A DNA stretch of 64,000 nt from Pseudomonadota bacterium (GTDB lineage: Bacteria; Pseudomonadota; Gammaproteobacteria; SURF-13). Numbering within the stretch: the first letter of the stretch is position 1; the number at the start of each line of letters is the position of its first letter. The notes under the pieces were generated by a model that was not told the DNA's origin, did not search any database, and saw nothing but the letters and a program-made list of their open reading frames with translations. Location: positions 147 to 64,146 of the forward strand of contig JBFLZV010000005.1 of assembly GCA_040756035.1 (NCBI GenBank), read 5' to 3'. Shown piece by piece: positions 2,695 to 58,030 of the stretch. The translations under genes were made by a program, and so were the position numbers.

Positions 2695-2875
2695 TCTTAA
2701 GGAACCTCTGATTAATTCAGAGGCTCCTCTTTGCTGGGCAGGAAGCCCGAATGCCGCAGGCGGTCGCTCTCGGATCCCTGTCCTCCGCGACACTTGCGTA
2801 TCCCTGCGCATCGCAGGATGCGCAAGAGCGGCGGTGCTCTGATAATTCCTGAGATGGGGTTATTCAGAGTCTCTA
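2695..2875. repeat. Modular palindromic intergenic element, family 1, copy A (degenerate: modules P1, P2, P5 present)
   Basis: AACCTCTGATTAATTCAGAGGCT palindrome at 2703-2725, GTATCCCTGCGCATCGCAGGATGCG hairpin, GCTCTGATAATTCC...GGTTATTCAGAGTCTC palindrome. Same modules recur at 17946-18075, 20937-21087 and 55575-55725. Confidence 0.6.
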
Positions 2876-2949: not shown

Positions 2950-3162
2950 GTGATGACTTGTAACGTTGGCACGGCGGAAAGAGCCGTGCGCATTGTGTTG
3001 GGCATCGCGCTGTTATCCTTGCTGTTTATCCTGGAGGGTAACGCGAAATACTTGGGCCTGTTTGGGCTGGTGCTGCTGGCTACCGCGGCGGTGCGTTGGT
3101 GTCCGGTTTGGGCCCTATTCGGCGTTAACACATGCGGCGCGCAGAAAAAGTCCGCTACCTGA
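2950..3162 (+). CDS. DUF2892 (YgaP C-terminal-like) small inner-membrane protein
   Basis: 70 aa, two TM helices and the conserved C-terminal CPVWALFGVNTCG motif. GGGAGG RBS 6 nt upstream. Confidence 0.5.
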   Translation: MMTCNVGTAERAVRIVLGIALLSLLFILEGNAKYLGLFGLVLLATAAVRWCPVWALFGVNTCGAQKKSAT

Positions 3163-3232
3163 TGACCTAAGGATTGCAGCAAGTTCGCCAAAATCCGGTC
3201 ATAAATTTTATATCACCGTGAATTTAAGCGCC

Positions 3233-4672
3233 ATGCTTAAACAGATTTTGCTCGTCTCTTTGCTTGCTCTGAGCGGCGCAGCGGCCGTGCAGGCCGCCGT
3301 GCCGGATACCGCGCCTGCGTTGTCCGAAAAAATGGTGGGGCGCGTGGATGTCGCCGGTTGGAAGGACGTCTCGTTTCGCGTGAGTCCGGATGGCAAGCGC
3401 TATGCCTACGTGGTGCAAGCAGGCGAGAAGCAAGCGGTGGTGGTGGACGGCAAGCGCGGCAAATTTTACGACGGCATCGGTGAGCACGCCGGGTTTTTCA
3501 GCCCCGACAGCCGCCGCGTGGCGTACGTTGCGTTGAGTAATGGCGCGTGGCGCGTAGTGCTCGACGGCGTGGAGGGACCGGCCTACGACGCCCTATCGAA
3601 TCCGGTGTTCAGCCCCGACAGCCGCCGCGTCGCCTATAAGGCCAAGCTGAACGGTCAAGCGTTCGTGGTGCTGGACGGTAAGCGCGGCGCGCCGTACGCC
3701 GGCTTGGGCACGCGCGAGCAACCCCTACTGTTCAGTTCCGACAGCCGTCGGTTGGCGTATGTAGCCGCGCAGGACGGCAAGGAATTCGCGGTGATCGACG
3801 GGCGGGCCGGCAAGCCTTATGACTTAATCGGCTCGCGCAGCATAGTATTCAGTCCCGACGGCAAGCGTGTCGCGTACCGCGCCGTGCGCGGCGGTTCCAC
3901 CGTGGTTGTCATCGACGGCGAAGAGCATCAGCCGTATCCCGTGATCGGCATCAGCGCGCCGCGCTTCAGCCCCGACAGTCGGAATTTGGTTTACGTCGCC
4001 GGTGACGGCGTCAAGAAATTCGTAGTGCTCAACGGTGAAGAGCAAGCGGCGTACGATGAAGTGCTTACCTTCTCGCCGGTGTTCAGCCCCGACAGCCGCC
4101 GCGTCGCCTACGTGGTCAGGCACGCGGGCAGGGAGTTCGTGGTGGTCGACGGCAAGGAGGGAAAAAAGTATGATCACATCGCGCAGGAAAGCCCGGTATT
4201 CAGCCCCGATAGCAAGCACGTCGCCTACGTCGCCCAGCAGGATGGCAAGGCCTTCGCCGTAATCGACGGCGCGGAAGGCAAGGCTTATGATTACGTCGGC
4301 GAATTGAAACCGTTTTTCAGTCCCGACGGCAAGCGGGTCGCGTACCGCGCCAGCCGTGATGGGAAGATGCGCGTGGTGGTGGATGGCGTTGAGCAGAAAG
4401 AGTACGATGCCATCGGCAACGGCAATCCGTTGTTCAGCCCGGATGGCGAGCATGTCGCTTATCGCGCGCAGGGGGCTCGCGGCGGCGTGGTGGTGGTGGA
4501 TGGCGCCGAGGGCAAGCCTTACGATTTAATCCTGCCCGAAATCAGATTCGATGCGCCGGACCGGTTGCATTACCTGGCGATAAAAAATGACAATATTTAT
4601 TTAGTCTCGCACAAAGCGGTCAGGACAGGCGCGCATGGATTACGCGCAACTGCGCTATTAACTCGGCGATAA
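3233..4672 (+). CDS. secreted tandem-repeat protein: ten ~40-aa repeats (FSPDGKRVAY...VVVDGxEGKxYD), PD40/TolB-like beta-propeller-blade-like
   Basis: Signal peptide MLKQILLVSLLALSGAAAVQAAV. Ten consecutive repeats are visible in protein and DNA (TTCAGCCCCGACAGCCGCCGCGTCGCCTAC recurs). The ORF-track start at 2966 is an out-of-context N-extension overlapping the DUF2892 gene; trimmed to the in-frame ATG 3233. Confidence 0.6.
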   Translation: MLKQILLVSLLALSGAAAVQAAVPDTAPALSEKMVGRVDVAGWKDVSFRVSPDGKRYAYVVQAGEKQAVVVDGKRGKFYDGIGEHAGFFSPDSRRVAYVALSNGAWRVVLDGVEGPAYDALSNPVFSPDSRRVAYKAKLNGQAFVVLDGKRGAPYAGLGTREQPLLFSSDSRRLAYVAAQDGKEFAVIDGRAGKPYDLIGSRSIVFSPDGKRVAYRAVRGGSTVVVIDGEEHQPYPVIGISAPRFSPDSRNLVYVAGDGVKKFVVLNGEEQAAYDEVLTFSPVFSPDSRRVAYVVRHAGREFVVVDGKEGKKYDHIAQESPVFSPDSKHVAYVAQQDGKAFAVIDGAEGKAYDYVGELKPFFSPDGKRVAYRASRDGKMRVVVDGVEQKEYDAIGNGNPLFSPDGEHVAYRAQGARGGVVVVDGAEGKPYDLILPEIRFDAPDRLHYLAIKNDNIYLVSHKAVRTGAHGLRATALLTRR

Positions 4673-4803
4673 AATATATCTCTATATTATTTTGTCGCCG
4701 TCGCCCAGGCCGGTACATGCCCGGCCTGGTCTCTCGCGGCTTAAGGCCGCAGCAAGGCTCCATGCCTTACTCAACTCGGTAATAAGTACCGCTGAGTTAA
4801 TAG
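4658..4803 (+). repeat. MITE-like structured repeat, family 2, copy 1
   Basis: TTAACTCGGCGATAAAATATATCTCTATATTATTTTGTCGCC hairpin, CCAGGCCGGTACATGCCCGGCCTGG hairpin, GCGGCTTAAGGCCGC hairpin, terminal ...CGCTGAGTTAATAG. Near-identical copies at 12143-12288 (inverted) and 45619-45764. Supplies the last 4 codons and stop of the repeat protein. Confidence 0.6.
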
Positions 4804-7178: not shown

Positions 7179-7487
7179 ATGGATATGAATAAAGAGGAAC
7201 CGGAAAATCGCGGCAAGCGCGGCGGTGAAATAGTCAGTCGTGATCGCGAGCACATGGCGGAGATCGGCCGCAAGGGCGGTAAGGCGGTGAGCCAGAATCG
7301 CCAGCACATGGCGGAGATTGGGCGCAGGGGCGGGGTGACGGTGAGTCAGAATCGCGAACACATGGCGCTTATAGGGCGCAAAGGCGGCGCCACGGTCAGC
7401 CGGGATCGCCGGCATATGTCGGAAATCGGCAAAAGAGGCGGCAGGGCGCGGGGCGGCGCGCACGAGTCGGAAGGACGCGCGCAGTAA
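7179..7487 (+). CDS. KGG-repeat general stress protein (YciG/ConJ-like)
   Basis: 102 aa. Four tandem repeats REHMAEIGRKGG-x-VSxxRxHM. KGG-motif stress proteins are commonly sigma-S controlled. Confidence 0.65.
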   Translation: MDMNKEEPENRGKRGGEIVSRDREHMAEIGRKGGKAVSQNRQHMAEIGRRGGVTVSQNREHMALIGRKGGATVSRDRRHMSEIGKRGGRARGGAHESEGRAQ

Positions 7488-12142: not shown

Positions 12143-12288
12143 TATTAACCCGGCGGGATGTATTGCGGGGTTGAGCAAGGCACGGATGCCCTGACGCGGC
12201 CTTAAGCCGCGCGAGACCAGGCCGGGCATGTACCGGCCTGGGCGGCGGCGATAAACTATATGGATATAGTTTATCGCCGAGTTAATAG
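12143..12288 (-). repeat. MITE-like structured repeat, family 2, copy 2 (inverted orientation)
   Basis: The reverse complement matches copy 1/3 modules: CCAGGCCGGGCATGTACCGGCCTGG, GCGGCCTTAAGCCGC, TAAACTATATGGATATAGTTTATCGCC. Lies in the promoter region of fmdB. Confidence 0.6.
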
Positions 12289-12304
12289 CTGTGAAGGTAA
12301 CGCA

Positions 12305-15274: not shown

Positions 15275-15499
15275 GTGAAGATACCCGCCGGGCAATTCAA
15301 GGCGCGCTGCCTGAAGCTCATGGAGGAGGTGCGCCTGCGCCGCGCCGAGATCATCATTACCAAGCATGGAAAGCCGGTCGCTAAGCTGGTACCCGCGGAA
15401 GAGCGCGCCGCGCCGCTGCTGGGCTTTTTGAAAGGCACGGTCGATATCAAGGGCGACATCGTGAAGCCCGTCGGCGAGGCATGGGAAGCCGATGGCTAA
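15275..15499 (+). CDS. type II antitoxin, Phd/YefM family
   Basis: GTG start with AGGAGGG RBS at 15261-15267. IPAGQFKARCLKLMEEVRLRRAEIIITKHGKPVAKLVP matches the Phd/YefM fold. Overlaps the toxin start by 8 nt. Confidence 0.6.
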   Translation: MKIPAGQFKARCLKLMEEVRLRRAEIIITKHGKPVAKLVPAEERAAPLLGFLKGTVDIKGDIVKPVGEAWEADG

Positions 15500-15920
15500 G
15501 ACCATCCCGTTGCTGCTCGACACCCACGCCTGGGTGTGGCTCATGAATGGCGACGAGGATAAGTTTTCCGCGGCCAGCCGCAAGATAATTCAGCATGCCG
15601 GTCAACGGGGCCTGCTGCGCGTATCTATTTTATCGGTGTGGGAAGTGGGCATGCTGGAGTCCAAGGGCCGCTTGAAATTTTCGCGGCCCTGTCTGGATTG
15701 GATCAATGCCGCGCTGTCCGCACCGGGCATAGCACTCGCACCGCTCGAGCCGCAGGCGGCCGTCGAAAGCAGCCGCTTGCCCGGCAGCTTTCACGGCGAC
15801 CCGGTGGACCGGATGCTGGTCGCTACGGCGCGACACCTCGGCGCGACGCTGCTCACGCAAGATGATAAGATTATCCGCTACGGCAAACAGCATTCCGTGT
15901 CGGTCATGACTTTGAGCTAG
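15492..15920 (+). CDS. type II toxin, PIN-domain VapC family
   Basis: 142 aa. LLLDTHAWVWL N-terminal acidic-pocket motif, conserved D residues, translational coupling to the antitoxin. Confidence 0.7.
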   Translation: MAKTIPLLLDTHAWVWLMNGDEDKFSAASRKIIQHAGQRGLLRVSILSVWEVGMLESKGRLKFSRPCLDWINAALSAPGIALAPLEPQAAVESSRLPGSFHGDPVDRMLVATARHLGATLLTQDDKIIRYGKQHSVSVMTLS

Positions 15921-17061: not shown

Positions 17062-17128
17062 GGTGGGCACGTTGTTTGTGCCCACCGGTCAAGATTACGC
17101 GTGGGCACAAAAGGCGTGCCCACCCTAC
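17058..17128. repeat. REP-like palindromic doublet (GTAGGGTGGGCAC ... GTGCCCACCCTAC) between convergent nadA and an SDR gene
   Basis: Two hairpins GTGGGCAC-N-GTGCCCAC nested in an outer 13-bp inverted repeat. Related single unit at 31238-31266. Likely a bidirectional terminator or REP element. Confidence 0.5.
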
Positions 17129-17133
17129 GTTTT

Positions 17134-17826
17134 TCACCACGGTAATTCCTTGCCCTCGTAACTGAAAAATTTCCCGGTGTCCTTGAGCGTAAAGCCGTCG
17201 ATGATTTTGCGCATGCCGCGCACACTGACTTGCGGGGTGATCTCGGCATTAGGCCCGCCCATGTCTGTCCGCACCCAGCCGGGGTGCAGGAGCAGCGCGC
17301 CGATGCCGTGCGATTTGAGGTCGATGGATAAACTCACCATCACGGCGTTCAGCGCCGCTTTGCTGGAGCGGTAAGGGTAGTAGCCGCCGCTGCGGTTGTC
17401 GGCCATGCTGCCCATCAAGCTGGTGATCGCCGCGATCAGGCGTTTCTGGCTGTGCGCCACGTGCACCAGAAACGCCTCGGCCATTTTCGCCGCGGCCAGC
17501 GTGTTGACGCGAAAACTTTCTATCCACGCTTCATAGTCGAGGTGGCGAAACTCTTCGCCGTGATCGTGATAGATGCCGGCATTGTTGAGCAGTACGTCGA
17601 TGGTTTCGTGCGCGAGGTCGCCGGCCAGGGCGTCGATCTGCCGGTGGTCGCGCACGTCCACGCCATGGTAGCTGAGATTTTTATGCTTTTTGGCGAGATC
17701 GCTGAGCGCGCCGGCGCAGTGCGGGTCGCGGCAACAGGCGTACACGCGCCAGCCATCTTCGGCGTATTGGCGCGCGAATTCCAACCCCAGGCCGCGATTC
17801 GAACCGGTAATGAGGATGCTGGGCAT
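17134..17826 (-). CDS. SDR-family oxidoreductase (CsgA/C-factor-like short-chain dehydrogenase)
   Basis: 230 aa. ITGSNRGLG Rossmann motif, NNAG, YRSSK catalytic Y-x3-K. Confidence 0.8.
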   Translation of the reverse strand: MPSILITGSNRGLGLEFARQYAEDGWRVYACCRDPHCAGALSDLAKKHKNLSYHGVDVRDHRQIDALAGDLAHETIDVLLNNAGIYHDHGEEFRHLDYEAWIESFRVNTLAAAKMAEAFLVHVAHSQKRLIAAITSLMGSMADNRSGGYYPYRSSKAALNAVMVSLSIDLKSHGIGALLLHPGWVRTDMGGPNAEITPQVSVRGMRKIIDGFTLKDTGKFFSYEGKELPW

Positions 17827-17945
17827 GAGAAAAACTCCTTTACTTTATGGAAGCCCTGAAATTCCATCCTAACGCTACGCAATCCTGCTACGCTTGGATA
17901 CCGGGGTTTGCTCTTCATGGCAAACCCACTTGCCGTGTCGCGGCG

Positions 17946-18075
17946 CGCCCATGAAATTTTCAGAGACGAAAGAACAAAAAATATGATTTTTTTCTTAATT
18001 TTCAATTTTTTATGTAATTGAAAAATGGCGATGCATCCCTGCATCGCAGGAATCTCTGAGTAACTCAGAGATTCC
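17946..18075. repeat. Modular palindromic intergenic element, family 1, copy B
   Basis: Modules P5 (half)-P4-P3-P2-P1: GCGATGCATCCCTGCATCGCAGG hairpin and GGAATCTCTGAGTAACTCAGAGATTCC 27-bp palindrome. Abuts the CBS gene stop. Confidence 0.6.
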
Positions 18076-18699
18076 TTACGAAGCAATCAGCCGGCGCTCG
18101 ATTTGATCCTCCATCAATACAGCCTCCAACTCAGCGAAGCTTTGCACCTTGCCGGAAGGCTGGATGTCCACGCCGAGTTGTTTGCCGATTTGCGTGGTGG
18201 AGAATATGCCGCGGATGACGTGTTCGCCGCCGCGCGGATTTTCCAGCACCAGGGCGTGCTGGCGCCCCGCCTCTTTGAGGGTGAGGATAATATCACCCAC
18301 ACTGGCGTGCAAGACGTCGTCGATGTGCAGCGCTTGTATTTTTTCATTCGGCGTCATGACGTGCTCGACCAGTAAATCCTCGCGGCGTATGCGCGTGCGC
18401 GCCAGATAGTGCACCGGTTTCTCGCCGAGGATGTCGCGCGCGGTAATGACGCCGAGCACATTGTCTTCGTTATCGGTCACCAGCAGCAACCGCACCTCGG
18501 CGTGGATCATTTTCTGCAAGGCCGTATCCATGGCGGCGTCGGGTCTGATGGTGACCGCCTTGACGCGCTTCAGGTCGGTCATAACGTCGAGCGCGGAGCT
18601 GTTAGGTTTTACTCTCTCCGGCAGGCCTTGTCCGTAGCGGCAAAACGAGGTGCCGGTGCGCAGGGTGTAAGAAGGGAGCGCTTTATATGACATAGCCAT
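18076..18699 (-). CDS. CBS-domain pair protein
   Basis: 207 aa. Two CBS motifs (DVMTDLKRVKAVTIRPDAAMDTALQKMIHAEVRLLLVTD..., VEHVMTPNEKIQALHIDDVLHASVGDIILTLKEAGRQHALVL). Confidence 0.7.
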   Translation of the reverse strand: MAMSYKALPSYTLRTGTSFCRYGQGLPERVKPNSSALDVMTDLKRVKAVTIRPDAAMDTALQKMIHAEVRLLLVTDNEDNVLGVITARDILGEKPVHYLARTRIRREDLLVEHVMTPNEKIQALHIDDVLHASVGDIILTLKEAGRQHALVLENPRGGEHVIRGIFSTTQIGKQLGVDIQPSGKVQSFAELEAVLMEDQIERRLIAS

Positions 18700-20883: not shown

Positions 20884-20936
20884 CGCGCGGTGGTTGGGCC
20901 GTGCGCAACACGATGCTACACTATATTATTAGATAA

Positions 20937-21087
20937 GGAATCTCTGATTTATTCAGAGATTCCTGCGCTACAGGGATGTAGCGCCATTTTTCAAATACGT
21001 AAGTATTTGAAAAATGAAGAAAAGCAAAAATCACATTTTTGCTTTTCGTGCTCTGATAATTCCTGGATGGAATTATTCAGAGTTTCC
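20937..21087. repeat. Modular palindromic intergenic element, family 1, copy C (full length: P1-P2-P3-P4-P5)
   Basis: GGAATCTCTGATTTATTCAGAGATTCC, GCGCTACAGGGATGTAGCGC, TTTTCAAATACGTAAGTATTTGAAAA, GAAAAGCAAAAATCACATTTTTGCTTTTC, GCTCTGATAATTCCTGGATGGAATTATTCAGAG: five consecutive hairpins. Confidence 0.65.
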
Positions 21088-21116
21088 ATAATTTATCGGA
21101 GCAGCGTGGAGTTCCT

Positions 21117-23074: not shown

Positions 23075-23350
23075 ATGAAAACCGCAAGTGGAAAAAAAAC
23101 CTCGGGCAAGCGCGCGGCGAAAAAGTACACCGCCACGCAACTGCGCCAGGAGATTTATAAAGTGCTCGACACCGTACTGGAAACCGGCGTGCCGGTGGAG
23201 GTGGAGAGGCGCGGGCGGGCACTGAGGATCAGCGCCGTCGAAGCGCCGGACAAGCTCGACCGGCTGGCGCCGCACCCGGACTATATCGTCGGTGATCCGG
23301 AAGAGTTGGTGCATCTAGATTGGTCGGCGAAGTGGCGTCCGTATGTGTAA
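23075..23350 (+). CDS. type II antitoxin (Phd/YefM-like) with basic N-terminal tail
   Basis: 91 aa. TATQLRQEIYKVLDTVLETGVPVEVERRGRALRI resembles the Phd/YefM fold. Precedes a PIN toxin by 12 nt. Confidence 0.55.
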   Translation: MKTASGKKTSGKRAAKKYTATQLRQEIYKVLDTVLETGVPVEVERRGRALRISAVEAPDKLDRLAPHPDYIVGDPEELVHLDWSAKWRPYV

Positions 23351-23362
23351 GCCGCCGAGCGC

Positions 23363-23737
23363 ATGATTTATCTCGACACGCATGTGGTCGCGTGGCTCTA
23401 TCAGGGCGCGCGGGCGCAGTTCAGCAAGCGCGCGCAGGCGCTCATCGCCGATAACGCGCTGAGCATATCGCCCATGGTGGTGTTGGAGTTGGACTATTTA
23501 TATGAGACGAAGCGTGTGCGCGAACCCGCCGCGCGGGTCCTGCGCCATTTGCAAAGACAGCTGGCCTTGTCGATTTGCGATAAACCGTTTGCGGACATTG
23601 TCGCCGCGGCGCACTATTGCGCGTGGACGCGCGACCCCTTCGACCGCCTGATCGTGGCGCACGCGAGCCTGGAAGAAAACACCTTGTTAACAAAAGATAA
23701 AGCGATCCACGCTCACTATCGCGCCGCCGTGTGGTAG
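23363..23737 (+). CDS. PIN-domain toxin (VapC-like)
   Basis: 124 aa. [13 protein letters not shown]-terminus with conserved Asp, [13 protein letters not shown]-terminal PIN motif. Confidence 0.65.
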
Positions 23738-30554: not shown

Positions 30555-31229
30555 ATGTCCTCGGCAACCTCCCAACTAGCCGCGGCGGATCAGACGCTGC
30601 GCATCACCGAAATCTTCTATTCCCTGCAAGGCGAAACCCGCACCGTAGGCCTGCCCACCGTGTTCGTGCGCCTCACCGGTTGCCCGCTGCGCTGTGGCTA
30701 TTGCGACACCGCCTATGCTTTTTACGGCGGGCGGAAAATGACGCTCGATGAAGTGCTCGATCAAGTCGCCGCTCACCAACCACGCTATGTCACCGTCACC
30801 GGCGGCGAGCCGCTCGCGCAGAAAACGTGCTTAACGCTGCTCAGCCGCTTGTGCAACGCCGGCTATGAGGTATCGCTGGAGACCAGCGGCGCGTTGGACG
30901 TGTCGACGGTCGACGCGCGCGTCGTCAAAATCGTCGATTTCAAAACGCCCGGCTCCGGCGAACAGGAAAAAAATCTTTACGCCAACGTCGCGCATCTCCT
31001 GCCGCACGATCAAGTCAAATTCGTATTGTGCGATCGCCGCGATTATGAATGGGCAAAAGACATGCTCGCGCGCCACAATCTGGCCGCGCGCTGCGAGATA
31101 TTGTTCTCACCGAGCTATCAGCAACTCAAAGCCGCCGATCTAGCGAACTGGATACTCGAAGACCGTTTGCCGGTGCGTTTACAAATACAGTTGCACAAAT
31201 ATTTATGGGGCGATGTGCCGGGGAGATAG
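30555..31229 (+). CDS. queE: 7-carboxy-7-deazaguanine synthase QueE (radical SAM)
   Basis: 224 aa. LRITEIFYSLQGE, CPLRCGYCDT radical-SAM Cys motif. Confidence 0.85.
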   Translation: MSSATSQLAAADQTLRITEIFYSLQGETRTVGLPTVFVRLTGCPLRCGYCDTAYAFYGGRKMTLDEVLDQVAAHQPRYVTVTGGEPLAQKTCLTLLSRLCNAGYEVSLETSGALDVSTVDARVVKIVDFKTPGSGEQEKNLYANVAHLLPHDQVKFVLCDRRDYEWAKDMLARHNLAARCEILFSPSYQQLKAADLANWILEDRLPVRLQIQLHKYLWGDVPGR

Positions 31230-31237
31230 TGGCGAGC

Positions 31238-31266
31238 AGGGTAGGGTGGGCACGGTTTTTGTACCC
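31238..31266. repeat. REP-like single unit (GTAGGGTGGGCACGG ... CGTGCC) between queE and queC
   Basis: Shares the GTAGGGTGGGCAC core with the doublet at 17058-17128. GGCACG/CGTGCC stem. Confidence 0.35.
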
Positions 31267-31296
31267 ACGTGCCGTCTTACCGTTACCTAACCTTTT

Positions 31297-37216: not shown

Positions 37217-38887
37217 ATGAAAATGCTCACACAACATGGAACGTTGCACACCGATGTTTTTCCTCTCCCCTTACAAGCTGACGCGCCGGCGCTCATCGCC
37301 CCTTACGGCGGCGAACTGGTTAATTTGCTGGCCGATGAATCACAGGTCCAGCGCTTAAAACGGGAGGCCATCGCTCTCCCCTCCCTCGAACTCAATCCCT
37401 GGCAGCTCGCCGATCTGGAATTGCTGCTCAACGGCGGATTTTCGCCGCTGCGCGGTTTCATGAATCAAGCCGACTACGAGAGCGTGCTAAGTCGTATGCG
37501 CACCGGCGACGGCTTGTTTTGGCCCGTGCCGCTGGTGCTGGACGTCACCGCGGAAGCGGCTCGGCAACTCGCGCCGGAAAGCCGAGCCGCGTTACGCGAC
37601 GCGGAGGGCGTGTTGCTGGCGATACTCAATGTCAGCGACGTGTGGCAAGCGGATAAAGAGCGCGAGGCGCGCTTATTCCACGGCGCATCCGCTGCCGCTC
37701 GTCCCGGCGCGGTGCGGCCTAGGCGCGACTATTACGTGGGCGGCGCGGTGCAGGGTCTTGCGTTACCGGTGCGCTATGATTACCGCGCGCTGCGCCGGAC
37801 GCCCGCGCAATTACGCAAAGCGTTCACGGCGCGCGGCTGGACGCGCATCGCCGCTTTCCAGGCGGACGATCCGCTTCACGATGCGGCCCTCAGGGAAGCG
37901 CTGCGCGCGGCGCACCAGTGTGAGGCGAAATTACTGATCCATCCGCTCACCGGAACCCCAACCAGCGAGGACATCCATCACTTTCATCGCGTGCGCTGCT
38001 ATCAGAACATGGTGGCGCAACTTCCCAAATCAGAGGCCGCGCTGGCGCTGTTGCCGCTGGCGTCTCACCATGGCGCCGACGCGCGTACCACACTGTGGCA
38101 CGCCATTATTCACCGCAACCACGGATGCTCGCATTTTATCGCCGACACCGGCACGCTTGCACCGCGCATGGACGGCGTGCGCGCGGATGCCGAAGCGGCG
38201 CAAACGCCGGCGGCGCGTTGCCGGGAGCTTACCGGCGTCGAGTTGCTTCCCCTCGAAGCCATGGGGCGTGACGCAACTAATGCGGCGATCAACGTGTACA
38301 CCAGCCCATCGCTCGGCGATTGGCAGCCGCACAAACTTTATGTCCCGCGCGCCACGCGCGGCTTCACGGTGTTTTTCACGGGGCTGTCCGGCGCGGGAAA
38401 ATCCACATTGGCCAAGGCGCTCGCGGCGCACCTCATGGAATCGAGCGAACGCCAAGTGTCGTTGCTGGACGGCGACATTGTACGCAAACACCTCTCTAAC
38501 GAGCTGGGTTTCTCCAAAGAGCATCGAGACATCAACGTGCTGCGCATCGGTTACGTCAGCAGCGAAATCACCAAGCATCGCGGCATAGCCATTTGCGCGC
38601 CGATCGCTCCCTACCGGGCCACACGGCGCGCGGTGCGCGCCATGATCGAGCCGTACGGCGGATTTTTCGAAATCTACGTCGCCACCCCGCTCACGGTGTG
38701 CGAGCGGCGCGACGGCAAAGGGCTGTACGCCAAGGCGCGCGCCGGAATCATCAAGGAATTTACCGGTATCAGCGACCCGTATGAGACGCCCGAGTCTCCC
38801 GATTTGACGGTCGACACCTCGAATCAGTCGCCGGAACAAACGGTGCAGCGTATTCTGGATAAATTATGCGAGGAGGGTTTTATCTAA
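37217..38887 (+). CDS. cysC: adenylylsulfate (APS) kinase CysC with N-terminal motif-degenerate ATP-sulfurylase-like domain
   Basis: 556 aa. C-terminal APS-kinase P-loop GLSGAGKST, LLDGDIVR, and C-terminal FTGISDPYE. The N-terminal ~380 aa has the Sat fold, but canonical motifs are replaced: QTRN->QADD, HxxH->HDAA, GRDHAG->HRNHGC. Confidence 0.8.
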   Translation: MKMLTQHGTLHTDVFPLPLQADAPALIAPYGGELVNLLADESQVQRLKREAIALPSLELNPWQLADLELLLNGGFSPLRGFMNQADYESVLSRMRTGDGLFWPVPLVLDVTAEAARQLAPESRAALRDAEGVLLAILNVSDVWQADKEREARLFHGASAAARPGAVRPRRDYYVGGAVQGLALPVRYDYRALRRTPAQLRKAFTARGWTRIAAFQADDPLHDAALREALRAAHQCEAKLLIHPLTGTPTSEDIHHFHRVRCYQNMVAQLPKSEAALALLPLASHHGADARTTLWHAIIHRNHGCSHFIADTGTLAPRMDGVRADAEAAQTPAARCRELTGVELLPLEAMGRDATNAAINVYTSPSLGDWQPHKLYVPRATRGFTVFFTGLSGAGKSTLAKALAAHLMESSERQVSLLDGDIVRKHLSNELGFSKEHRDINVLRIGYVSSEITKHRGIAICAPIAPYRATRRAVRAMIEPYGGFFEIYVATPLTVCERRDGKGLYAKARAGIIKEFTGISDPYETPESPDLTVDTSNQSPEQTVQRILDKLCEEGFI

Positions 38888-38959: not shown

Positions 38960-40348
38960 ATGATTAGTGATGAACTACCGCATATCTCTCTCTGGGAGCG
39001 CTTGATAAATCCCGTGGTGGTGGTAAGCACTTTGCCGGCGGCAACGTTGTTCTACGGAAAGACGTTCGACGGTTACTATTTGGTGCTGGCCATCATCGTC
39101 TTTTTCATTTCATCACAGCTCTTCGAAAAAGTCACGCTGTTACGCTCACTGCGCAAGGTGCATCTTTTGACCCATGCGCAGGATATCCTCTTTGCATGGT
39201 CGACCGTCGTCGTCATCATTTTCATCCTGGGCTACGCAACCAAGCTCAATACCCAATACTCACAAGACGTTATTTTGCTGTGGCTGATCGCCTCTCCCAT
39301 AGCGTTGCTCGCGGCGCACGTCATTACCCGCGCTTGCCTCGCCAGACTTACGCGGCTGACCGATAAAAAGCGTAGCGTGGTCATCGCCGGCGCCAACGAA
39401 CTGGCCAGACAACTGGTAAAGACCATCAAAAACGAGCCTTATCTGGGCATGGAGATAAAGGGGCTGTTCGATGACCGCAGCCGCGAGCGCCTGAACGGCT
39501 GCAACGGCGAGATTGCGCTGTGCGGGCGCATCAAGGATTTGCCGGAATTCGTCGCCAAAAAGAAAATCAACATCATCTACATTACGCTGCCCATGTCGTC
39601 ACGCCCGCAGATCATGAAGCTGTTACAGGATTTGTATGACAGCACGGCGTCCATCTACTTCGTGCTCGATATTTTCGTCTTTGACCTCATTCAGCCGCGC
39701 ATCGACACCATTAAAGGCATACCGGTGGTGGCCATTTGCGAGAGCCCGTTTTGCGGCGTGAACGGCGTTATAAAGAACGCCAGCGACATACTCATCGCAG
39801 CCGTTATTTTACTGCTGATTTCACCATTGATGCTGTTAATCGCGTTGGGAGTGAAGCTAAGTTCGCCCGGGCCGGTGCTGTTCAAGCAGCGCCGTTACGG
39901 ACTGAACGGTGAAGAGATCAAGGTATATAAGTTCCGTACCATGACGGTGTGCGAAGACGGTGACTGCGTCGCGCAGGCAACCAAGAACGACCAGCGCGTG
40001 ACCCGCTTCGGCGCCTTCCTGCGCAAAACGTCGCTCGACGAACTGCCGCAGTTCATCAACGTGCTGCGCGGCGAAATGAGCATCGTCGGCCCGCGCCCGC
40101 ACGCGGTGGCGCACAACGAGCTGTACAGAAAATACATCCGAGGGTACATGCTGCGCCACAAGGTCAAGCCCGGCATCACCGGTTGGGCGCAGGTGCACGG
40201 TTTGCGCGGCGAAACAGAAACCATGGACAAGATGCGCGCACGCATCGATTACGACCTCGATTATTTAAGAAATTGGTCGTTGTCTCTGGACGTGTGGATA
40301 ATCATCAGAACCATCATGGTCATGTTCAAGCAACCCAATGCATATTGA
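38960..40348 (+). CDS. undecaprenyl-phosphate sugar phosphotransferase (EPS priming glycosyltransferase, WbaP/WcaJ/EpsB-2 family)
   Basis: 462 aa. N-terminal TM helices, central Rossmann-like domain, C-terminal bacterial sugar-transferase domain ([26 protein letters not shown]...SIVGPRP). Confidence 0.85.
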
Positions 40349-40409
40349 TGGTAAAGAGGGTTGTGCGAGCATTCTAGAGGGAGAGGTGCATATCAAGGGA
40401 GTATGCAAA

Positions 40410-41048
40410 ATGACAATAGTGAAGACTATGAAAGAAAGAGTGATGCAGGCATCGCGGGGTAAAAAGCTGGAGCACTTTTGCTCGCTTTACAAAGGCGGGA
40501 CCATACTCGACGTGGGTGTTTCATCTCACGCTCGTATCCAGCGGGAAAACCTATTTCTGGAGAAACTCAGGTACAGCCCGGAACTCTACACGGGACTGGG
40601 CGTGGAGGATTTGACCGAAATAGCCGCCGCGCATCCCGGCAAGCACTTTATTCGCTATGGCGGAGGCAGATTCCCGTTTAAGGATAAAGAGTTTGATTGG
40701 GCTCCCTCCAACGCCGTAATCGAGCAAGTCGGCGATGATAGTGCGCAGCTTTTGTTCATTAACGATATGCTGCGCGTGGCAAAGCAAGTATTCTTTGCAA
40801 CGCCTAATAAATTTTTCCACGTGGAAAGCCATACTAACGTTGTTCTGTTGCATCGGCTGCCTGGGCGAGTGTTTTATCAATGGCGCGATCGCCGTAAGAA
40901 GTATTGGGATGAAAACAATATTCGTTTGTTGGGCTATGGAAAGTTATGTAGCCTTATGAAGAATTCCAATGCAGAAACATACCGGATATATAAAAACCAT
41001 ATGTTCGGATGGCCCATGATGTTCACGGTTACTTGCACGGCCGCCTGA
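40410..41048 (+). CDS. putative SAM-dependent methyltransferase (lower-GC block)
   Basis: Start set at MTIVKT (AAGGGA RBS). GTILDVGVSSH resembles SAM-binding motif I. Local GC is markedly lower than the flanks. Confidence 0.45.
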   Translation: MTIVKTMKERVMQASRGKKLEHFCSLYKGGTILDVGVSSHARIQRENLFLEKLRYSPELYTGLGVEDLTEIAAAHPGKHFIRYGGGRFPFKDKEFDWAPSNAVIEQVGDDSAQLLFINDMLRVAKQVFFATPNKFFHVESHTNVVLLHRLPGRVFYQWRDRRKKYWDENNIRLLGYGKLCSLMKNSNAETYRIYKNHMFGWPMMFTVTCTAA

Positions 41049-41127
41049 TGAGCCATTTTAACGTGATCTAGTCAAGGGCATATTCCCTTGGGTTTGGTGG
41101 AAGACAAGGTTATACGGAGCGGTATTT

Positions 41128-41967
41128 ATGCCTACCATGCATGACGTATTGACGGAAGAAGAAATGTCCGAATTTAGGATAAATCCGGAAATTTCGAGAT
41201 ATTTGGAACTGGTTAGAGAGAAGTCGGGACTGGAAAAGGATCAATTCCGCATTTTGGATTGGGGATGCGGCCGGGGCCGGGCGGTGGGTTTGCTTAGAAA
41301 TCTCGGCTACGACGCTTACGGTGTGGATATTAGCCAGGAATTTTTGAGCAAGGGTAAGCAATATTTTATAAACAGGGAAGAAAATCCGGATGATTTTCTC
41401 TTTCTGATAAGCGAGGAGTGCAAGACGTGCTTCCACAATGATTTTTTTCACTTTATCTTCTCTTACCAAGTGCTCGAGCATGTGCAGGCTGTTGATCTTC
41501 TGTCCGAAGAAATAAGCAGGGTGTTGGCGCCGAACGGCGTATGTTTACACATCTATCCGGCTCACAAGCATATTATAGAAGGACATTTATTTATGCCTTT
41601 TGTCCACTGGCTGCCTAAAAGCGCTATACGGAAAGCAGCGATTTTAATGTTCGTGGCCCTCGGTATTGAGCCTCGCTGGCAGCGGTTGCAGGGTAAGGGC
41701 ATCCTCGAGAAAGCCAGGGCCTACTATGAGTTCAGCAAGAACGAGACGTTCTATCGCAGCTATGGCGTAAATAAGAATATCTTTGAGAAGAACGGCTTCA
41801 ACGTGGACTTCGTTACTATAGATAATCCACTGTTATATAAATACGGACCGCTTCGTAAATTAATGAAATTACCTTTCATTAAGAGACTGATTGGCTGGGG
41901 CTTGCTCAATTTTAAGTCGGTAGAGCTGTTGTTAACCAAGGGGAATCTACCGGTCGTCCGGCGTTGA
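41128..41967 (+). CDS. class I SAM-dependent methyltransferase
   Basis: 279 aa. Motif I ILDWGCGRGRAV, acidic motif II DAYGVDIS, motif III-like VLEHV. Lower GC. Confidence 0.65.
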   Translation: MPTMHDVLTEEEMSEFRINPEISRYLELVREKSGLEKDQFRILDWGCGRGRAVGLLRNLGYDAYGVDISQEFLSKGKQYFINREENPDDFLFLISEECKTCFHNDFFHFIFSYQVLEHVQAVDLLSEEISRVLAPNGVCLHIYPAHKHIIEGHLFMPFVHWLPKSAIRKAAILMFVALGIEPRWQRLQGKGILEKARAYYEFSKNETFYRSYGVNKNIFEKNGFNVDFVTIDNPLLYKYGPLRKLMKLPFIKRLIGWGLLNFKSVELLLTKGNLPVVRR

Positions 41968-42194
41968 GTTAGTGCCGCCGGCCTATTTTCTTTCTCTCAC
42001 AAGGCGACACATTTTGTCACATAGTGACGCATAGCCATCCCTCCGCACGTGCGCGGGTTGCGCATAATTTCCAACGCCGCGTCGAAAATAAACATAATTT
42101 TTGTTTTCAAAAACCGCTAATACCGCAGCAGGACTAGCTCTGCGCGCAAATTTCATTTCACCCGCCGGTTCTGGGTGGGTCTCGCATCCCTTTT

Positions 42195-42210
42195 TGGCAC
42201 GCATCATGCT
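42195..42210 (+). promoter_or_regulatory. sigma-54 (RpoN) -24/-12 promoter TGGCACG-N4-ATGCT
   Basis: TGGCACGCATCATGC. GG and GC are spaced exactly as in the consensus TGGCACG-N4-TTGCW. It lies 54 nt upstream of the secreted-protein start; predicted TSS ~42221. Confidence 0.5.
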
Positions 42211-42263
42211 CTTATCCTCCGCGAGAAGCAGGCAGCTTTTGTCTTGCATATTCGGAGGAGATT

Positions 42264-43274
42264 GTGATGAAGAATGTTATTTCCCGGCTCGCTTCTATGC
42301 TGTTGGGTCTTGTCTTAATAATGGGGGTGGCGGCGCCGGCGCAGGCCGCGTTCCCAAACAAGTATCATCCGGGTCACTACATGTTGACCTATTTCGGCGC
42401 CACAGAGCTTAACGCCTTTAAGCCTATTATTAATAATCCGAATTTTGTGGGTGTGCAGAAGCGCTACAAATGGCGCACCCTGGAGCCCACGCGCGGCAAA
42501 TACGATTTTTCCATGATTATCCGGGATCTTAATTATCTGCGCAGCTTACCTATGCCTAAGCGGCTAATTATCCAAGTTACCGTTACCGGAGATGAAAAGG
42601 GGCTGCCGCACGCCCCCGATTATTTGAGAACGCCTGAATTTGACGGCGGCGTATACACGTCAACGTTCCCAGTGCGCTACGTTAGGACCAAACAGTGGAA
42701 TACGGCCGTGCAGGATAGGCTCATAGCCCTGTTCCGCGCCTTAGGGGCGCGTTTTGACAAAGAGCCTTACTTCGAGGGCGTAGTGTTGGATGAAACCGCT
42801 ACGGGTATTCGTCTCCATCAGTGGACGGCGGCTAACTATACGGCCGAGAAGGCATATAATGGCCACAAACGCATCATGGCCGGCTTGAAGGCGGCCTTTC
42901 CGAATACTATGTGCATTCAATTCATTAATTTCTTTTCCGGTGCAAACGCTAAGGATGGATTGAATAAAATCGCCGGACTGATTCAATATGCGCATCAGAT
43001 CGGCATGGGCATCGGCGGCCCGGACATCCATGTGGGCGGCACCGAGCCGAGTTACCCTTACTTCACTACTTATAACGGCAGTATGCCGTTGACCGCCGCC
43101 GTACAGTGGGAAGACTACGACTGGGTCAGCCCCACGGGTAGCATCGCCACGGTGCCGAAAATTTTCGACTTCGCACGCAATAAATTGCACCTGAATTATA
43201 TCTTCTGGCTGCAAAGAGAGCCCTACTTCTCAACGCAAGTGGTGCCGCTGGTGCGGCGCATGGGCGCTCCTTAA
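42264..43274 (+). CDS. secreted hypothetical protein (possible polysaccharide-active TIM-barrel enzyme)
   Basis: 336 aa. Signal peptide ending AAPAQAAF. No diagnostic motif recognised. GGAGG RBS. Driven by the sigma-54 promoter above. Confidence 0.5.
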   Translation: MMKNVISRLASMLLGLVLIMGVAAPAQAAFPNKYHPGHYMLTYFGATELNAFKPIINNPNFVGVQKRYKWRTLEPTRGKYDFSMIIRDLNYLRSLPMPKRLIIQVTVTGDEKGLPHAPDYLRTPEFDGGVYTSTFPVRYVRTKQWNTAVQDRLIALFRALGARFDKEPYFEGVVLDETATGIRLHQWTAANYTAEKAYNGHKRIMAGLKAAFPNTMCIQFINFFSGANAKDGLNKIAGLIQYAHQIGMGIGGPDIHVGGTEPSYPYFTTYNGSMPLTAAVQWEDYDWVSPTGSIATVPKIFDFARNKLHLNYIFWLQREPYFSTQVVPLVRRMGAP

Positions 43275-43304
43275 GCGTAGGAGCCAAGGTTGGCAAGGGG
43301 GGGG

Positions 43305-43345
43305 GGGGCTTTGTCCCCCCCTTTGTTTTTTTCGGCTATGTTTCC
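43305..43345. terminator. bidirectional terminator with G12/C8 homopolymer stem and T-run
   Basis: GGGGGGGGGGGGCTTTGTCCCCCCCCTTTGTTTTTTTCGG between convergent genes (42264-43274 + and 43336-45609 -). Confidence 0.5.
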
Positions 43346-45609
43346 GGTATGGCGGCCAATTCGAAGTAGGTCGTCGGTCCATGGCTGAGTTGGGTGGTAT
43401 CCAGAGTGAAACGGACGGCGCCCGGCGATTTCTCGATGGGAATGGCGTCCATGCGGTTACCGTTTAACGTCGTTGAAAACAGGCGCATGTCGTCCGCGGC
43501 CTCATGTTCTAAAGTGATTTTTACCCGTGCTGCGCGCATGAGCACCGGCAGTGTGCCCAACTCGTATAATTCTGTTCTGTCATCCGAAAATCGCATCTTG
43601 GAATTTAGCGCATCGGTAGCAAGAATAACAAGGATGCGTTTGCTGTCGGACAAAGGATGTCCATCGACCGACGATACCGCAACCAAGGCCGGCGTGCTGG
43701 CCGATTCAATTTTAAGCTGATTCAGCTTAAGCGGCAGCCCACCATCGAAAACCACTGCTTCCGTATTGGGCGTGATGACGCGCATGCGCCGTTCATGGGT
43801 TTCCAATAGGATTTCTCCGGTATCGCTGTGGTAAATACCTTTTTCCGGATCGGTAAGGTTATTTGTGGAGATAATTTTAGATTTTTTTAACAATGCTGTT
43901 TTCTCCATCAAAGGCGATGTGTTTTTTTTACCCAGCTTAACGGCCGCTTTATCGACGGCGGTTTTTATGGCGCCGGCAGGCGATGACGGGAGGGCCAGTG
44001 TTAAATCGGACCCCGAGGCCGGCGATTTTTTAACTTCTTCACTTCCCGTCCAACGTAAGCCGATGCCGGTGATGAATGCCAGCGTGCTAATATCTTCGGG
44101 TATGGGCCGCCAGCGCCCGCGCCCTTCGTTGAATACCGATTGCGGCGTCATTTCGATGTTTATTTTGGATTGTGCGGGCTGGACATCGGTGCGCCGGAAT
44201 AGTAACGTGGCTAGCGTTTCGCCGGCGCGCGCCACCGGGTCCATGCCCACGCCGAAGGGGTAAATGGCGGTATATCTTTTCGGTGCGTGCTTGTCATAGG
44301 TCAGCACGACTGGTGTTGCATAGCGGGCGATGCCGTCCCAGTCTTGCAGCGCCGCATAAGCGGGGATGGTGATGCCGGCCTCGCGCCGCCAGGGGTTCCA
44401 GAAGGGGTGGTCGTATTCATCGACGAGAAAGGGTTTTCCGATGTAGCGCGAGGAGGCGAAGTTGCGCGCGTAGGGTATCTCGTCGGAAATCGAGCTGGTC
44501 GCCGCCTGTTTGGTGCCGGGGCGTACGAAGTTGGACGGATGGTCGTAATAGCCGTGCTGCGTGACGAGTTCGAGCTCGTGCTCCACTACCCGTGAATATA
44601 CGCTTCTACCGTTGTTGTAGTTGGTGATCAAGCCACGGTAGCCTTCTTTACGCAGAAAGTCGGTTGCCCAGCGCAGGGTGCGGACTTCGAGGTCCGCGAA
44701 GAATCTTAATAGATCGGTGTGGCGCGGCGACGATTCCTTCAATTCGGGTAGGGTTACCTGCTCTATGCCGGTAATGCTCTCGTCTCCCCAGGCGCGGCGG
44801 ATGCTCGAGGCATTCCCGTATTTATTCAACAGCCATCGCCTGAAGGGGTCGAGAAGATCATCCTGATAACCGCTCTTGGTTAAATATTCCAGCCCGCTTT
44901 CGTTCACCAAGGTGAGTATCGCCAAGGCGGGATCCTGCAACGTTGCTAGTTTGGTATAGGGATTCTTTTTGCCCAGAATGGTCGTAACCATTCTTTTCCA
45001 ATGTTTCTGGGCGGACTCGTGTAAGTGAACGTCCAGTCGGAGATTGCGCTTGCTGGCGGGATTGCTCGGCGCATAGACGCCTCCCCAGTTGGTGGCGGCG
45101 TCGATCATCCAGTAAATGCCTTGGCGCTTCAATGCCGCGAGTAAGTAGTGGAAGCGATTCAACGCTTCCGGCCCGTAATCGAAATCTTTTTTACGACCTT
45201 CCATTAATACAGTGTCTATAAAATGGAATCTAACCAAATTATACCCGCGCATACGTAATTGTTCGGCCAGATCATCGGCGGCGGCGTGATCAGGAAACGG
45301 ACCAAAGGGGCCTCCGAACAGCATCGGTGCGCACAAAAAACGCACGCGCGGTCCCGAACCATTATCGAGGGCGAGATGGCCACGGTCGTTGACGCCGATA
45401 AAGCTCATGCCGGACTTTGGCGAAGGGCCGAATAAACCGGAAAAATCCAAAATGCTTCCCTGTTCAATTTGTAAATTAGTATCCTTGACGGCGAGCCACT
45501 CATCCTTATTCACCTGATCATCGGCAAATGTGACCGGGGTCTGGAATAGTAGCGCAGAAATTGCAAAGGCATAGGCAATTAGGTGCTGTTTCATATTTGT
45601 TCGATCCAT
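43336..45609 (-). CDS. secreted glycoside-hydrolase-like protein (GH5/GH42-type TIM barrel, NE and E catalytic candidates)
   Basis: 757 aa. Signal peptide (MKQHLIAYAFAISALLFQTPVTFA). LVNESG (acid/base NE) and VDEYDHPFW (nucleophile E) motifs. Sits in the EPS locus. Confidence 0.5.
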   Translation of the reverse strand: MDRTNMKQHLIAYAFAISALLFQTPVTFADDQVNKDEWLAVKDTNLQIEQGSILDFSGLFGPSPKSGMSFIGVNDRGHLALDNGSGPRVRFLCAPMLFGGPFGPFPDHAAADDLAEQLRMRGYNLVRFHFIDTVLMEGRKKDFDYGPEALNRFHYLLAALKRQGIYWMIDAATNWGGVYAPSNPASKRNLRLDVHLHESAQKHWKRMVTTILGKKNPYTKLATLQDPALAILTLVNESGLEYLTKSGYQDDLLDPFRRWLLNKYGNASSIRRAWGDESITGIEQVTLPELKESSPRHTDLLRFFADLEVRTLRWATDFLRKEGYRGLITNYNNGRSVYSRVVEHELELVTQHGYYDHPSNFVRPGTKQAATSSISDEIPYARNFASSRYIGKPFLVDEYDHPFWNPWRREAGITIPAYAALQDWDGIARYATPVVLTYDKHAPKRYTAIYPFGVGMDPVARAGETLATLLFRRTDVQPAQSKINIEMTPQSVFNEGRGRWRPIPEDISTLAFITGIGLRWTGSEEVKKSPASGSDLTLALPSSPAGAIKTAVDKAAVKLGKKNTSPLMEKTALLKKSKIISTNNLTDPEKGIYHSDTGEILLETHERRMRVITPNTEAVVFDGGLPLKLNQLKIESASTPALVAVSSVDGHPLSDSKRILVILATDALNSKMRFSDDRTELYELGTLPVLMRAARVKITLEHEAADDMRLFSTTLNGNRMDAIPIEKSPGAVRFTLDTTQLSHGPTTYFELAAIPET

Positions 45610-45618
45610 TTTGGTTAG

Positions 45619-45764: not shown

Positions 45765-45771
45765 TCCACGG

Positions 45772-47355: not shown

Positions 47356-47423
47356 GGTCTTTGTTATGCGGCCGCGGAGTTGCCCAACAATGCTTGAACA
47401 ACCTCATGTGATTTCGCCGAATC

Positions 47424-57989: not shown

Positions 57990-58030
57990 GATTGCACCCC
58001 TGAGTATCTGTAATGAAAAATTAAACCCGG

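Follow-up and report, generated by a model that had tools for sequence, protein, structure and literature searches.

A probable miniature transposable element with IS5-type ends, five hairpins and conserved GGA loops in a gammaproteobacterial contig

Short intergenic repeats of several kinds have been described in bacteria, and they provide the closest comparisons for a 151-nucleotide (nt) element of which four copies, designated A to D, are found in a 64,000-nt stretch (the window) of contig JBFLZV010000005.1 of a Pseudomonadota bacterium of the gammaproteobacterial lineage SURF-13. The Correia repeat enclosed elements (CREE) of Neisseria and the enterobacterial repetitive intergenic consensus (ERIC) sequences are likewise small, multicopy and intergenic, with terminal inverted repeats. 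Both are about 100-160 bp long, are co-transcribed with neighbouring genes and have stable RNA structure; Correia elements duplicate TA, have a 26-bp repeat and a site for integration host factor (IHF), and pair end to end. The family described here differs from Correia and ERIC elements in its 4-bp YTAR duplication, in its 11-19-nt ends of the IS5 type and in its five independent covarying hairpins. The repetitive extragenic palindromes (REPs) and bacterial interspersed mosaic elements (BIMEs) of Escherichia coli form mosaic arrays of intergenic palindromes at gene ends, as here. REPs depend on the REP-associated tyrosine (RAYT) transposase and are not known to have target duplications or terminal repeats around a unit, the two features by which the present family differs from them. 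In Streptococcus pneumoniae, the BOX, RUP and SPRITE repeats are modular and made of hairpin-forming boxes, some of them terminator-like, and they cluster and nest (PMC10969869). The present family shares this modular hairpin build, but the hosts (Firmicutes) and the sequences differ, and the pneumococcal transposases are different or unknown; unlike the pneumococcal repeats, it has end modules that are back-to-back IS5-type repeats and loops with a conserved GGA.

Terminal repeats, target duplications and the IS5 group

[quoted passage not shown] When 45 full-length copies from at least 12 genomes were aligned, their boundaries proved sharp, and the copies were found to begin and end with mutually inverted terminal repeats of 11 nt, GGAATCTCTGA on the left and TCAGAG(C/T)TTCC on the right, the latter reading GGAA(A/G/T)CTCTGA as its reverse complement. 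The element is 150-152 nt long and consists entirely of five hairpins (H1 to H5), with no transposase gene. The 4 bp on its two sides are identical in 22 of the 45 copies, including copy C (ATAA/ATAA), whereas 5000 permutations of the flanks gave a mean of 3.6 and a maximum of 12; flanks that match at three or more of the four positions were counted in 39 copies (permuted mean 17.6, maximum 28), and one further copy that was mis-parsed in the flank count is also perfect. Because the duplicated tetramers differ among copies (ATAA, TTAA, CTAA, TTAG, TGAA, CTGA, ACAG, TCAA, TTGA, TAAG), they are target-site duplications and not element sequence. Position by position, the flanks of the 45 copies are composed of T30/C8/A6, T32, A36 and A35/G8, that is, (T/C)TA(A/G), which equals the 4-bp target of IS5, 5′-YTAR-3′ (PMC5009759).

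The ends themselves also resemble those of the IS5 group. The repeats of IS5 in E. coli K-12 (NC_000913) are GGAAGGTGCGAATAAG and GGAAGGTGCGAACAAGTCC, and the right end of the family in Pseudomarimonas arenosa, GGAAAGTCTGAATAAGTCC, agrees with the right inverted repeat of E. coli IS5 at 15 of 19 positions, which is similarity and not identity. In other copies, the right end extended inward reads GGAAGCTCTGAATAAG(TCC) as its reverse complement, and agrees at 13 of 16 positions with the inverted repeat GGAAGGTCTGAACAAC of an IS5-group element of Xanthomonas perforans. The latter was encountered when plasmids were searched with the family end alone: X. perforans plasmid CP077786, whose record is unannotated, contains six copies of a 1158-bp IS with inverted repeats GGAAGGTCTGAACAAC and GGAAGGTCTGATCAAC and a transposase 54% identical to InsH, three of the six having identical 4-bp flanks (TTAG/TTAG once and CTAA/CTAA twice). 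The same plasmid contains at least 11 copies of a 151-bp MITE, the repeats of which (GGAAGCTCTGAACAAC) match those of the IS at 15 of 16 positions and which has perfect CTAA, TTAG or CTAG duplications in all copies; a different IS5-family IS, matching the NCBIfam IS5 transposase model, adjoins one of these MITEs. This type of repeat demonstrably goes with an IS5-group transposase and with YTAR duplications. The X. perforans MITE and IS (GGAAG(G/C)TCTGAA(C/T)AA) and E. coli IS5 (GGAAGGTGCGAA(T/C)AAG) have the same type of repeat and have the 4-bp YTAR duplication in common with the present family, and the Xanthomonas MITE is also 151 bp long. Its interior is unrelated, giving no match to a covariance model of the family (R1, built from 27 diverse copies), and it forms one long hairpin closed by both ends in contrast to the five serial hairpins of the family.

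An IS5-group DDE transposase acting in trans would recognise the GGAATCTCTGA... and ...TCAGAG(C/T)TTCC ends and insert the element at (T/C)TA(A/G), with the duplication of 4 bp to which the flanks attest. Because this target includes TAA or TAG and is itself rare in GC-rich coding DNA, insertions would be expected at AT-rich positions between genes and in many cases precisely at a stop codon, as with copies B and D; the YTAR target thus explains the position of the copies at gene ends.

The family extends far beyond the window. A scan of one genome per species for the palindrome that constitutes H1 found at least 111 stretches in at least 36 genomes; the copies in the window are thus not the only ones, nor is the similarity restricted to short generic palindromes. 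Among the matches listed, the hosts include many gammaproteobacterial metagenome-assembled genomes (MAGs), P. arenosa CAU 1598 and other Lysobacterales, Halothiobacillus, a Thiotrichales MAG, Cellvibrionaceae, Sedimenticola, a Gallionellales MAG, a Bordetella MAG and Mariprofundus. Apart from the genome of the window, 18 genomes have full-length elements with scores of 100 bits or more; the part of JALTLT01 that was sampled has 32 full-length copies and that of P. arenosa nine, the latter species being one that provides a cultured host of the element (strain CAU 1598). The H1 palindrome also occurs alone (26-28 nt) in other genomes with perfect duplications (GTAA at locus L018, TTAA at L034, TTAG at L072), and the smallest mobile unit appears to be two repeats back to back. 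A search of the PLSDB plasmids with the whole element by blastn gave no match, and a literal sequence search of a collection of papers returned only unrelated primer matches.

Between copy C and copies in the MAG JAQBXX01, which occupy unrelated sites, identity reaches 94-95%, compared with about 78-80% in the coding DNA shared by the two genomes; this is a sign of horizontal spread, of strong constraint in the lineage that propagates, or of the two together. Short-read contigs of the window organism end inside H5, as seen in all four of those shown for copy C and all seven of those shown for copy D. Both observations fit a repeat in many copies. In the one orthologous pair of loci found, L097 and L110, the element is present in both, and the synteny of JAQBXX01 locus L100 with the window ends before the site of copy B. 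Apart from fragmenting the short-read assemblies of its lineage, the element marks insertion hot-spots at stop codons and allows horizontal spread to be traced across genomes of Gamma-, Beta- and Zetaproteobacteria.

Several results have to be set against this identification. About half of the copies have imperfect flanks, the perfect ones being 22 of 45. No empty site was found in a metagenome scan with the hydrolase that neighbours copy C, the relatives of which were at most 55% identical, or by way of EpsG, which is encoded next to copy D and has its nearest homologues at about 63-64% identity. Nor did the parent IS come to light: tblastn with InsH gave no match in the window and about 760 kb of loci, no repeat pairs 0.3-3 kb apart enclosing an open reading frame (ORF) were found in the same DNA, and an all-against-all megablast revealed no IS-sized repeated segments. 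Since neither a partner IS nor an empty site was obtained, mobilisation of the window family by an IS5-group DDE transposase can only be inferred. The mobility of the element and its assignment to a family are well supported, and it is highly probable that the repeats represent a real MITE family, widespread and to all appearances undescribed, that has ends of the IS5 group and duplicates YTAR sites.

A 104-bp element at L204:2504-2607 (Klebsiella pneumoniae plasmid NZ_CP025458.1), with repeats GGAAGCTCTGAAAAAGCCC and GGGCTTTTTCAGACCTTCC, also came to light in the plasmid search with the family end; it was considered as a lead to the parent IS and turned out to be a dead end. It is 100% identical in 763 PLSDB plasmids of Klebsiella, Citrobacter, E. 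coli, Aeromonas and Pseudomonas, and is fixed at a single site upstream of the korC/klcA (antirestriction) region, beside a Tn3-type tnpR or IS26. A MITE-like remnant of an IS of the IS5/IS1182 type is one possible interpretation. ISKpn6/IS1182 may be considered as another potential source of the repeat type found in the family.

In the window, two copies are complete (C and D), one is truncated (B) and one is a chimera (A), as detailed in Table 1, and a search of the window with R1 found no others. An earlier note on this DNA, made from its letters alone, had recognised four copies at or within a few bases of these positions and had ascribed to them up to five shared palindromic modules. All five are present in C and D; copy B lacks the 3′ arm of H5 and the right terminal repeat and ends in the loop of the last module, and copy A retains only the end modules H1 and H5, which enclose different GC-rich hairpins as its interior. 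What the note took for inversions of module order is merely the reverse complement of a single fixed order from H1 to H5. With up to three mismatches allowed, the 27-nt palindrome pattern matches the window three times (exactly at 18049-18075 and 20937-20963, and with three mismatches at 2701-2727) as opposed to no match in 100 shuffles; the GC-rich module matches at 18028-18050 and 55677-55699.

Each of the four copies is downstream of a gene end; the note had placed them at gene ends or between operons. Copy C has on one side an alpha/beta-hydrolase gene, with its stop at 20883, and on the other yebC, with its start at 21117, and the start of copy B directly adjoins the TAA stop at 18076-18078 that ends a CBS-domain gene. 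Copy D is within an exopolysaccharide (EPS) operon, between a Wzz/EpsF-like gene and epsG, and its first base overlaps the TAG stop (55725-55727) of the former by one base, which confirms the proximity to a wzz stop that had been pointed out. With its end set one base in, copy D has flanks CTAG/ATAG, a match at three of four positions; copy A has TTAA on both sides (2697-2700 and 2876-2879), given a right end one base longer than usual. The description of the elements as MITE-like is borne out by the terminal inverted repeats, the statistically supported 4-bp duplications, the small size and the dispersal in both orientations, and the description as mosaic by copy A and by a second family, F2 (see below), both of which show exchange of end modules and inner core. 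The IS5-type ends with their duplication and the conserved GGA loops, which are the most informative of the features, had escaped the note.

Table 1. Coordinates of the copies, of the parts of copy C and of related elements. Positions are those of the window unless an accession or locus is named; R1 is the covariance model of the family.
Feature	Coordinates	Strand	Description
Copy A	2701-2875	+	Chimera; R1 score 49.8 bits (2701-2874)
Copy B	17952-18075	-	Truncated; R1 score 84.8 bits
Copy C	20937-21087	+	Complete, 151 nt; R1 score 172.7 bits across all 152 positions of the model
Copy D	55575-55725	-	Complete but diverged; R1 score 113 bits (55575-55724)
Copy C, left target-site duplication	20933-20936		ATAA, identical to 21088-21091
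Copy C, hairpin 1 (H1)	20937-20963	+	Left terminal repeat GGAATCTCTGA and its own inverse 5 nt later
Copy C, hairpin 2 (H2)	20965-20984	+	GC-rich 8-bp stem, loop GGGA (GGA at 20974-20976); reads CUACAGGGAUGUAG
Copy C, hairpin 3 (H3)	20985-21016	+	AT-rich 14-bp stem; 13 of 14 pairs changed on both sides
Copy C, hairpin 4 (H4)	21019-21047	+	13-bp stem; 13 of 13 pairs changed on both sides
Copy C, hairpin 5 (H5)	21050-21083	+	Loop UGGAU (GGA at 21065-21067); 3′ arm enters the right terminal repeat
Copy C, right terminal inverted repeat	21077-21087	+	TCAGAGTTTCC, reverse complement GGAAACTCTGA
Copy C, right target-site duplication	21088-21091		ATAA
X. perforans IS, examples	CP077786.1 (L207-L209): 37410-38567, 95695-96852
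X. perforans MITE, examples	CP077786.1 (L207-L209): 17775-17925, 56368-56518
F2, examples	L056:2132-2293, L052:4155-4316, L095:6444-6606		About 13 more, mostly in JALTLT01

Covarying hairpins and conserved GGA loops

Copy C folds into five consecutive perfect hairpins with a free energy of -78.7 kcal/mol (z = -12.3 relative to shuffles), and its reverse strand does likewise. Each terminal repeat lies within a local hairpin of its own: in H1 the left repeat is succeeded after 5 nt by its inverse, and H5 comprises a partial forward repeat, a loop and the right repeat. Plain alignment with MAFFT followed by RNAalifold found only hairpins 1, 2 and 4 (3 and 5 being misaligned), and a model-based alignment of the 48 best matches to R1, from 19 genomes, was used instead. 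In that alignment 96% of cells are paired, as against 35-52% when the partners are slid by 1-3 columns, and 47 of the 60 pairs have changes on both sides, amounting to 436 cells versus 113 ± 9 in shuffles. H1 is nearly invariant, as is expected of transposase sites, and covariation is found all along H2 to H5; the five hairpins recur in P. arenosa, reconstituted there in GC-rich sequence. The window has no match in Rfam at gathering score, and copy C has none to a Csr/Rsm family up to E = 10; given the lack of a match, R1 could seed a new RNA or DNA family entry. The architecture of serial covarying hairpins, a swappable core and GGA loops is distinctive.

The loops of H2 and H5 contain GGA (CANGGAUG), the consensus of a CsrA/RsmA site. 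Outside the terminal repeats, conservation of at least 95% among unpaired columns is limited to the GGA of H2, the GGA of H5 and three single bases: GGA is conserved at 96-98% in the H2 loop and at 96-98% in the H5 loop, where it is followed by a T conserved at 91%, and all four bases occur in the loop position before each GGA. Together with its closing pairs, H2 reads C35 A36 N37 G38 G39 A40 N41 G42, that is, CANGGANG, and varies exactly at the N positions, with ACANGGAUGU in 21 of the 48 sequences and GCANGGAUGC in 11; H5 reads NGGAUG, with the loops CCAGGAUGG, UCAGGGAUGA or CCAUGGAUGG. The published consensus for RsmE is (A/U)CANGGANG(U/A), and that obtained for CsrA by SELEX is RUACARGGAUGU, with ACA and GGA as its invariant parts and the latter in a hairpin loop (PMC6849547, PMC7652899). 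H2 fits both, as in copy C, which reads CUACAGGGAUGUAG, and CAGGAUG is the repeat of CsrB (PMC7652899). The motif persists even where the surrounding sequence does not: F2 and a Halothiobacillus variant retain the GGA loop motif despite unrelated stems.

Several features of the 48 elements distinguish one strand from the other. The sequence CANGGANG occurs 59 times on the forward strand and twice on the reverse; G-U mismatches number 70 versus 38 A-C, exceeding A-C in 27 sequences with the reverse in five; and the two GGATG loop motifs are in direct and not inverted orientation, which speaks against their being transposase sites at both ends. All five hairpins appear to have been kept by paired substitutions across at least 19 genomes, and an invariant GGA is retained on one strand in the loops of H2 and H5. 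From the paired substitutions together with the one-strand GGA, a single-stranded form of the GGA strand may be inferred to be under selection; in lineages that propagate the element, this form would most likely be RNA read through from neighbouring genes. In the subfamily to which the window copies belong, H2 (plus strand) and H4 (minus strand), together with T-runs in H3, make up two terminator-like hairpins that face each other, and termination or insulation, along with stabilisation of the 3′ ends of flanking transcripts, would be the most likely local effect there. Sense transcripts would also acquire CsrA/RsmA sites through the GGA loops. Roles at the RNA level, and any function beyond mobility, can be suggested here rather than asserted.

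Some findings detract from this interpretation. Because related sequences were aligned to fit the structure, the shuffle control overstates the significance of the covariation. Template switching inside a hairpin at replication can be another source of paired changes, one that needs no selection. In a rough ORF-based test, 69 copies showed no orientation bias relative to flanking genes, with 6 co-oriented and 8 anti-oriented copies in tandem contexts and 38 sense versus 42 antisense flank calls; ORFs were called by a codon-position GC rule that left about 40% of flanks uncalled. The lack of an orientation preference speaks against single copies being selected as RNA modules of the sense strand, and the sense orientation of all four copies in the window may be due to chance.

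Alternative explanations of the hairpins

One alternative is that the hairpins have no function in the host or as RNA, but are DNA palindromes kept by template-switch correction or needed only for transposition (as hairpin or cruciform ends), so that the element is purely selfish. The paired cells are 93.5% Watson-Crick and only 2.5% G-U; no orientation bias relative to genes was detected; both terminal repeats are inside local palindromes, of which the 27-nt H1 evidently moves alone; and near-identical recent bursts such as the 32 copies of JALTLT01 look selfish. Those copies have 106 within-genome substitutions in total, too few to test for selection on the loops. A process at the DNA level, however, would be symmetric between the strands, yet the GGA motif is strongly confined to one of them and the excess of G-U over A-C is found in 27 sequences against five. 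In addition, the GGATG motifs are direct and not inverted as transposase sites at two ends would be, the loops are more conserved than the stems, and the related Xanthomonas MITE transposes without any such serial hairpins. A purely selfish element with functionless hairpins is judged rather unlikely.

A second alternative holds that the main role of the element is to carry RNA hairpins that bind CsrA/RsmA, its ends serving only to spread it; insertions would then put neighbouring genes under Csr/Rsm control, or the copies would titrate the regulator in the manner of CsrB or RsmZ. Sense transcripts would present the loops of H2 and H5 as two sites of high affinity. Every position of H2 agrees with the published consensus, the loops of H5 fit (CAGGAUG being the repeat of CsrB), only N positions vary around GGA, the motif outlasts unrelated stems and terminal repeats, and the signal is strand-specific with respect to both CANGGANG and G-U pairs. 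Copies A to D are all in the sense orientation with respect to both neighbouring genes, and an unrelated repeat family of the window (R2, described below) also has NGGA loops. Small RNAs of the CsrB, RsmY and RsmZ type are likewise composed of serial hairpins with (A)NGGA loops on one strand. They differ from the present family in that the latter has only two GGA loops (about 92 nt apart), no match to an Rfam Csr/Rsm family and no promoter of its own that could be identified, and is multicopy and mobile rather than a single regulated gene. The absence of orientation bias across 69 copies also counts against the proposal; no csrA gene was found in the window or the sampled loci, DNA that is uninformative on the host genomes; and a literature search found no precedent linking CsrA to MITEs or REPs. 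A primary role as a carrier of Csr/Rsm hairpins is considered improbable.

A related, speculative and rather improbable proposal, based on the motifs and their conservation, is that the family and F2 together constitute a mobile cassette of CsrA/RsmA-binding hairpins that scatters high-affinity GGA-loop sites near start and stop codons. Such a cassette would explain why loops are more conserved than stems, why the signal is strand-specific, why one core is found with two unrelated sets of ends, and why the element is better conserved than coding DNA. If it exists, the Csr/Rsm regulon would be rewired by insertions, and tens to hundreds of transcribed copies would make up a distributed sponge for the regulator. 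The family thus provides a definite case in which to ask if MITEs of bacteria are maintained and propagated as modules of regulatory RNA.

A third alternative is that the copies are dispersed bidirectional intrinsic terminators or insulators retained by the host at gene ends, similar to the pneumococcal SPRITE, and that their mobility is incidental. The earlier note had suggested a terminator, and in part this stands. The arms of H3 provide T-runs 3′ of H2 on the plus strand and 3′ of H4 on the minus strand, and H2 followed by CATTTTTC scores as terminator-like in copies C and B, as does H4 followed by TTCATTTTTC on the minus strand of copy C. All four window copies are downstream of a gene end, with B and D at a stop codon. 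The suggestion fails for copy D, which has no terminator match, and for other subfamilies: copies in JALTLT01, DTYI01 and Mariprofundus have an A-run after H2, and those in Pseudomarimonas have none. A terminator is thus plausible for some subfamilies at most. Moreover, many copies elsewhere are beside gene starts or between divergent genes (nine start/start contexts), a strong terminator would be polar at the site of copy D inside an operon, and the position at stop codons is explained by the YTAR target. Retention as terminators is therefore quite unlikely as the explanation of the family.

That the copies are REP/BIME-type elements spread by a RAYT (Y1) transposase, a likeness proposed in the earlier note and suggested by their clustered short intergenic palindromes, both orientations and mosaic modules, is already contradicted by the duplications, since the entire 151-nt unit is bounded by genuine terminal inverted repeats and by direct duplications of 4 bp that vary in sequence, the aligned copies have no conserved head of the GTAG type, and solo H1 palindromes are also flanked by duplications. 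The IHF site that the note had envisaged did not materialise either: hairpin 3 was read by eye for WATCAANNNNTTR and gave no consistent match. Its suggestion of gyrase binding likewise finds no support.

Module exchange, other repeats and surroundings

The element is built around a three-hairpin core (H2 to H4), flanked by H1 and H5, that can be swapped or shared between elements. F2, the second family with this core, is a 162-bp MITE with repeats CAGG(C/A)TGTTGAAAAA and 4-bp duplications of the TTAA, CTAA or ATAA type. It has the same H2-H3-H4 core between end hairpins that are unrelated to those of the present family, with an end hairpin loop CC-AGGA-UGG. At least 14 copies of F2 are present in the sample of JALTLT01, one in JAQBXX01 and none in the window, and the Halothiobacillus variant has yet other ends. 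Copies of F1, the present family, and of F2 are often adjacent or nested.

R2 is a second, unrelated dispersed repeat of the window, about 145 nt long, located at 12146-12290 (+), 45617-45763 (-) and, in partial form, 4654-4758 (-); two of the copies are 95% identical across 93 nt. Its terminal repeats are TTAACYNGGCG with TA on both flanks, resembling IS630/mariner elements, and it folds into five hairpins (-77.7 kcal/mol, z = -5.4), several with NGGA(U) loops. A GC-rich hairpin, GTGGGCAC...GTGCCCAC, is found at intergenic positions 17091-17140 and, inverted, at 31229-31278, and is possibly a third short repeat.

Directly downstream of copy A, a 568-amino-acid (aa) ORF (2966-4672) contains at least eight tandem coding repeats of 117 nt (39 aa, FSPDSRRVAY...) at 3439-4531, and looks like a repeat protein of the PD40 or beta-propeller type. 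Four tandem 54-nt repeats at 7221-7436, 69-74% identical to one another, are apparently also coding (18-aa units). The yebC-ruvCAB-tolQRAB-pal cluster includes a pair of PhdYeFM-antitoxin and PIN-toxin genes between ruvA and ruvB (23075-23737), and a second PIN-domain ORF is found at 15492-15920.

The G+C content of the window is 0.48-0.54 at 40000-50000 and 58000-60000, compared with about 0.60-0.63 elsewhere. The region of low G+C surrounds the EPS and PEP-CTERM exosortase locus in which copy D resides, comprising the Wzz/EpsF-like gene, epsG, and genes for EpsH, EpsI and a sulfotransferase. Of 5.8 billion proteins, none resembles the EpsG protein of the window at more than about 64% identity, and its lineage is therefore poorly sampled. 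The EPS region of low G+C may have been acquired horizontally.

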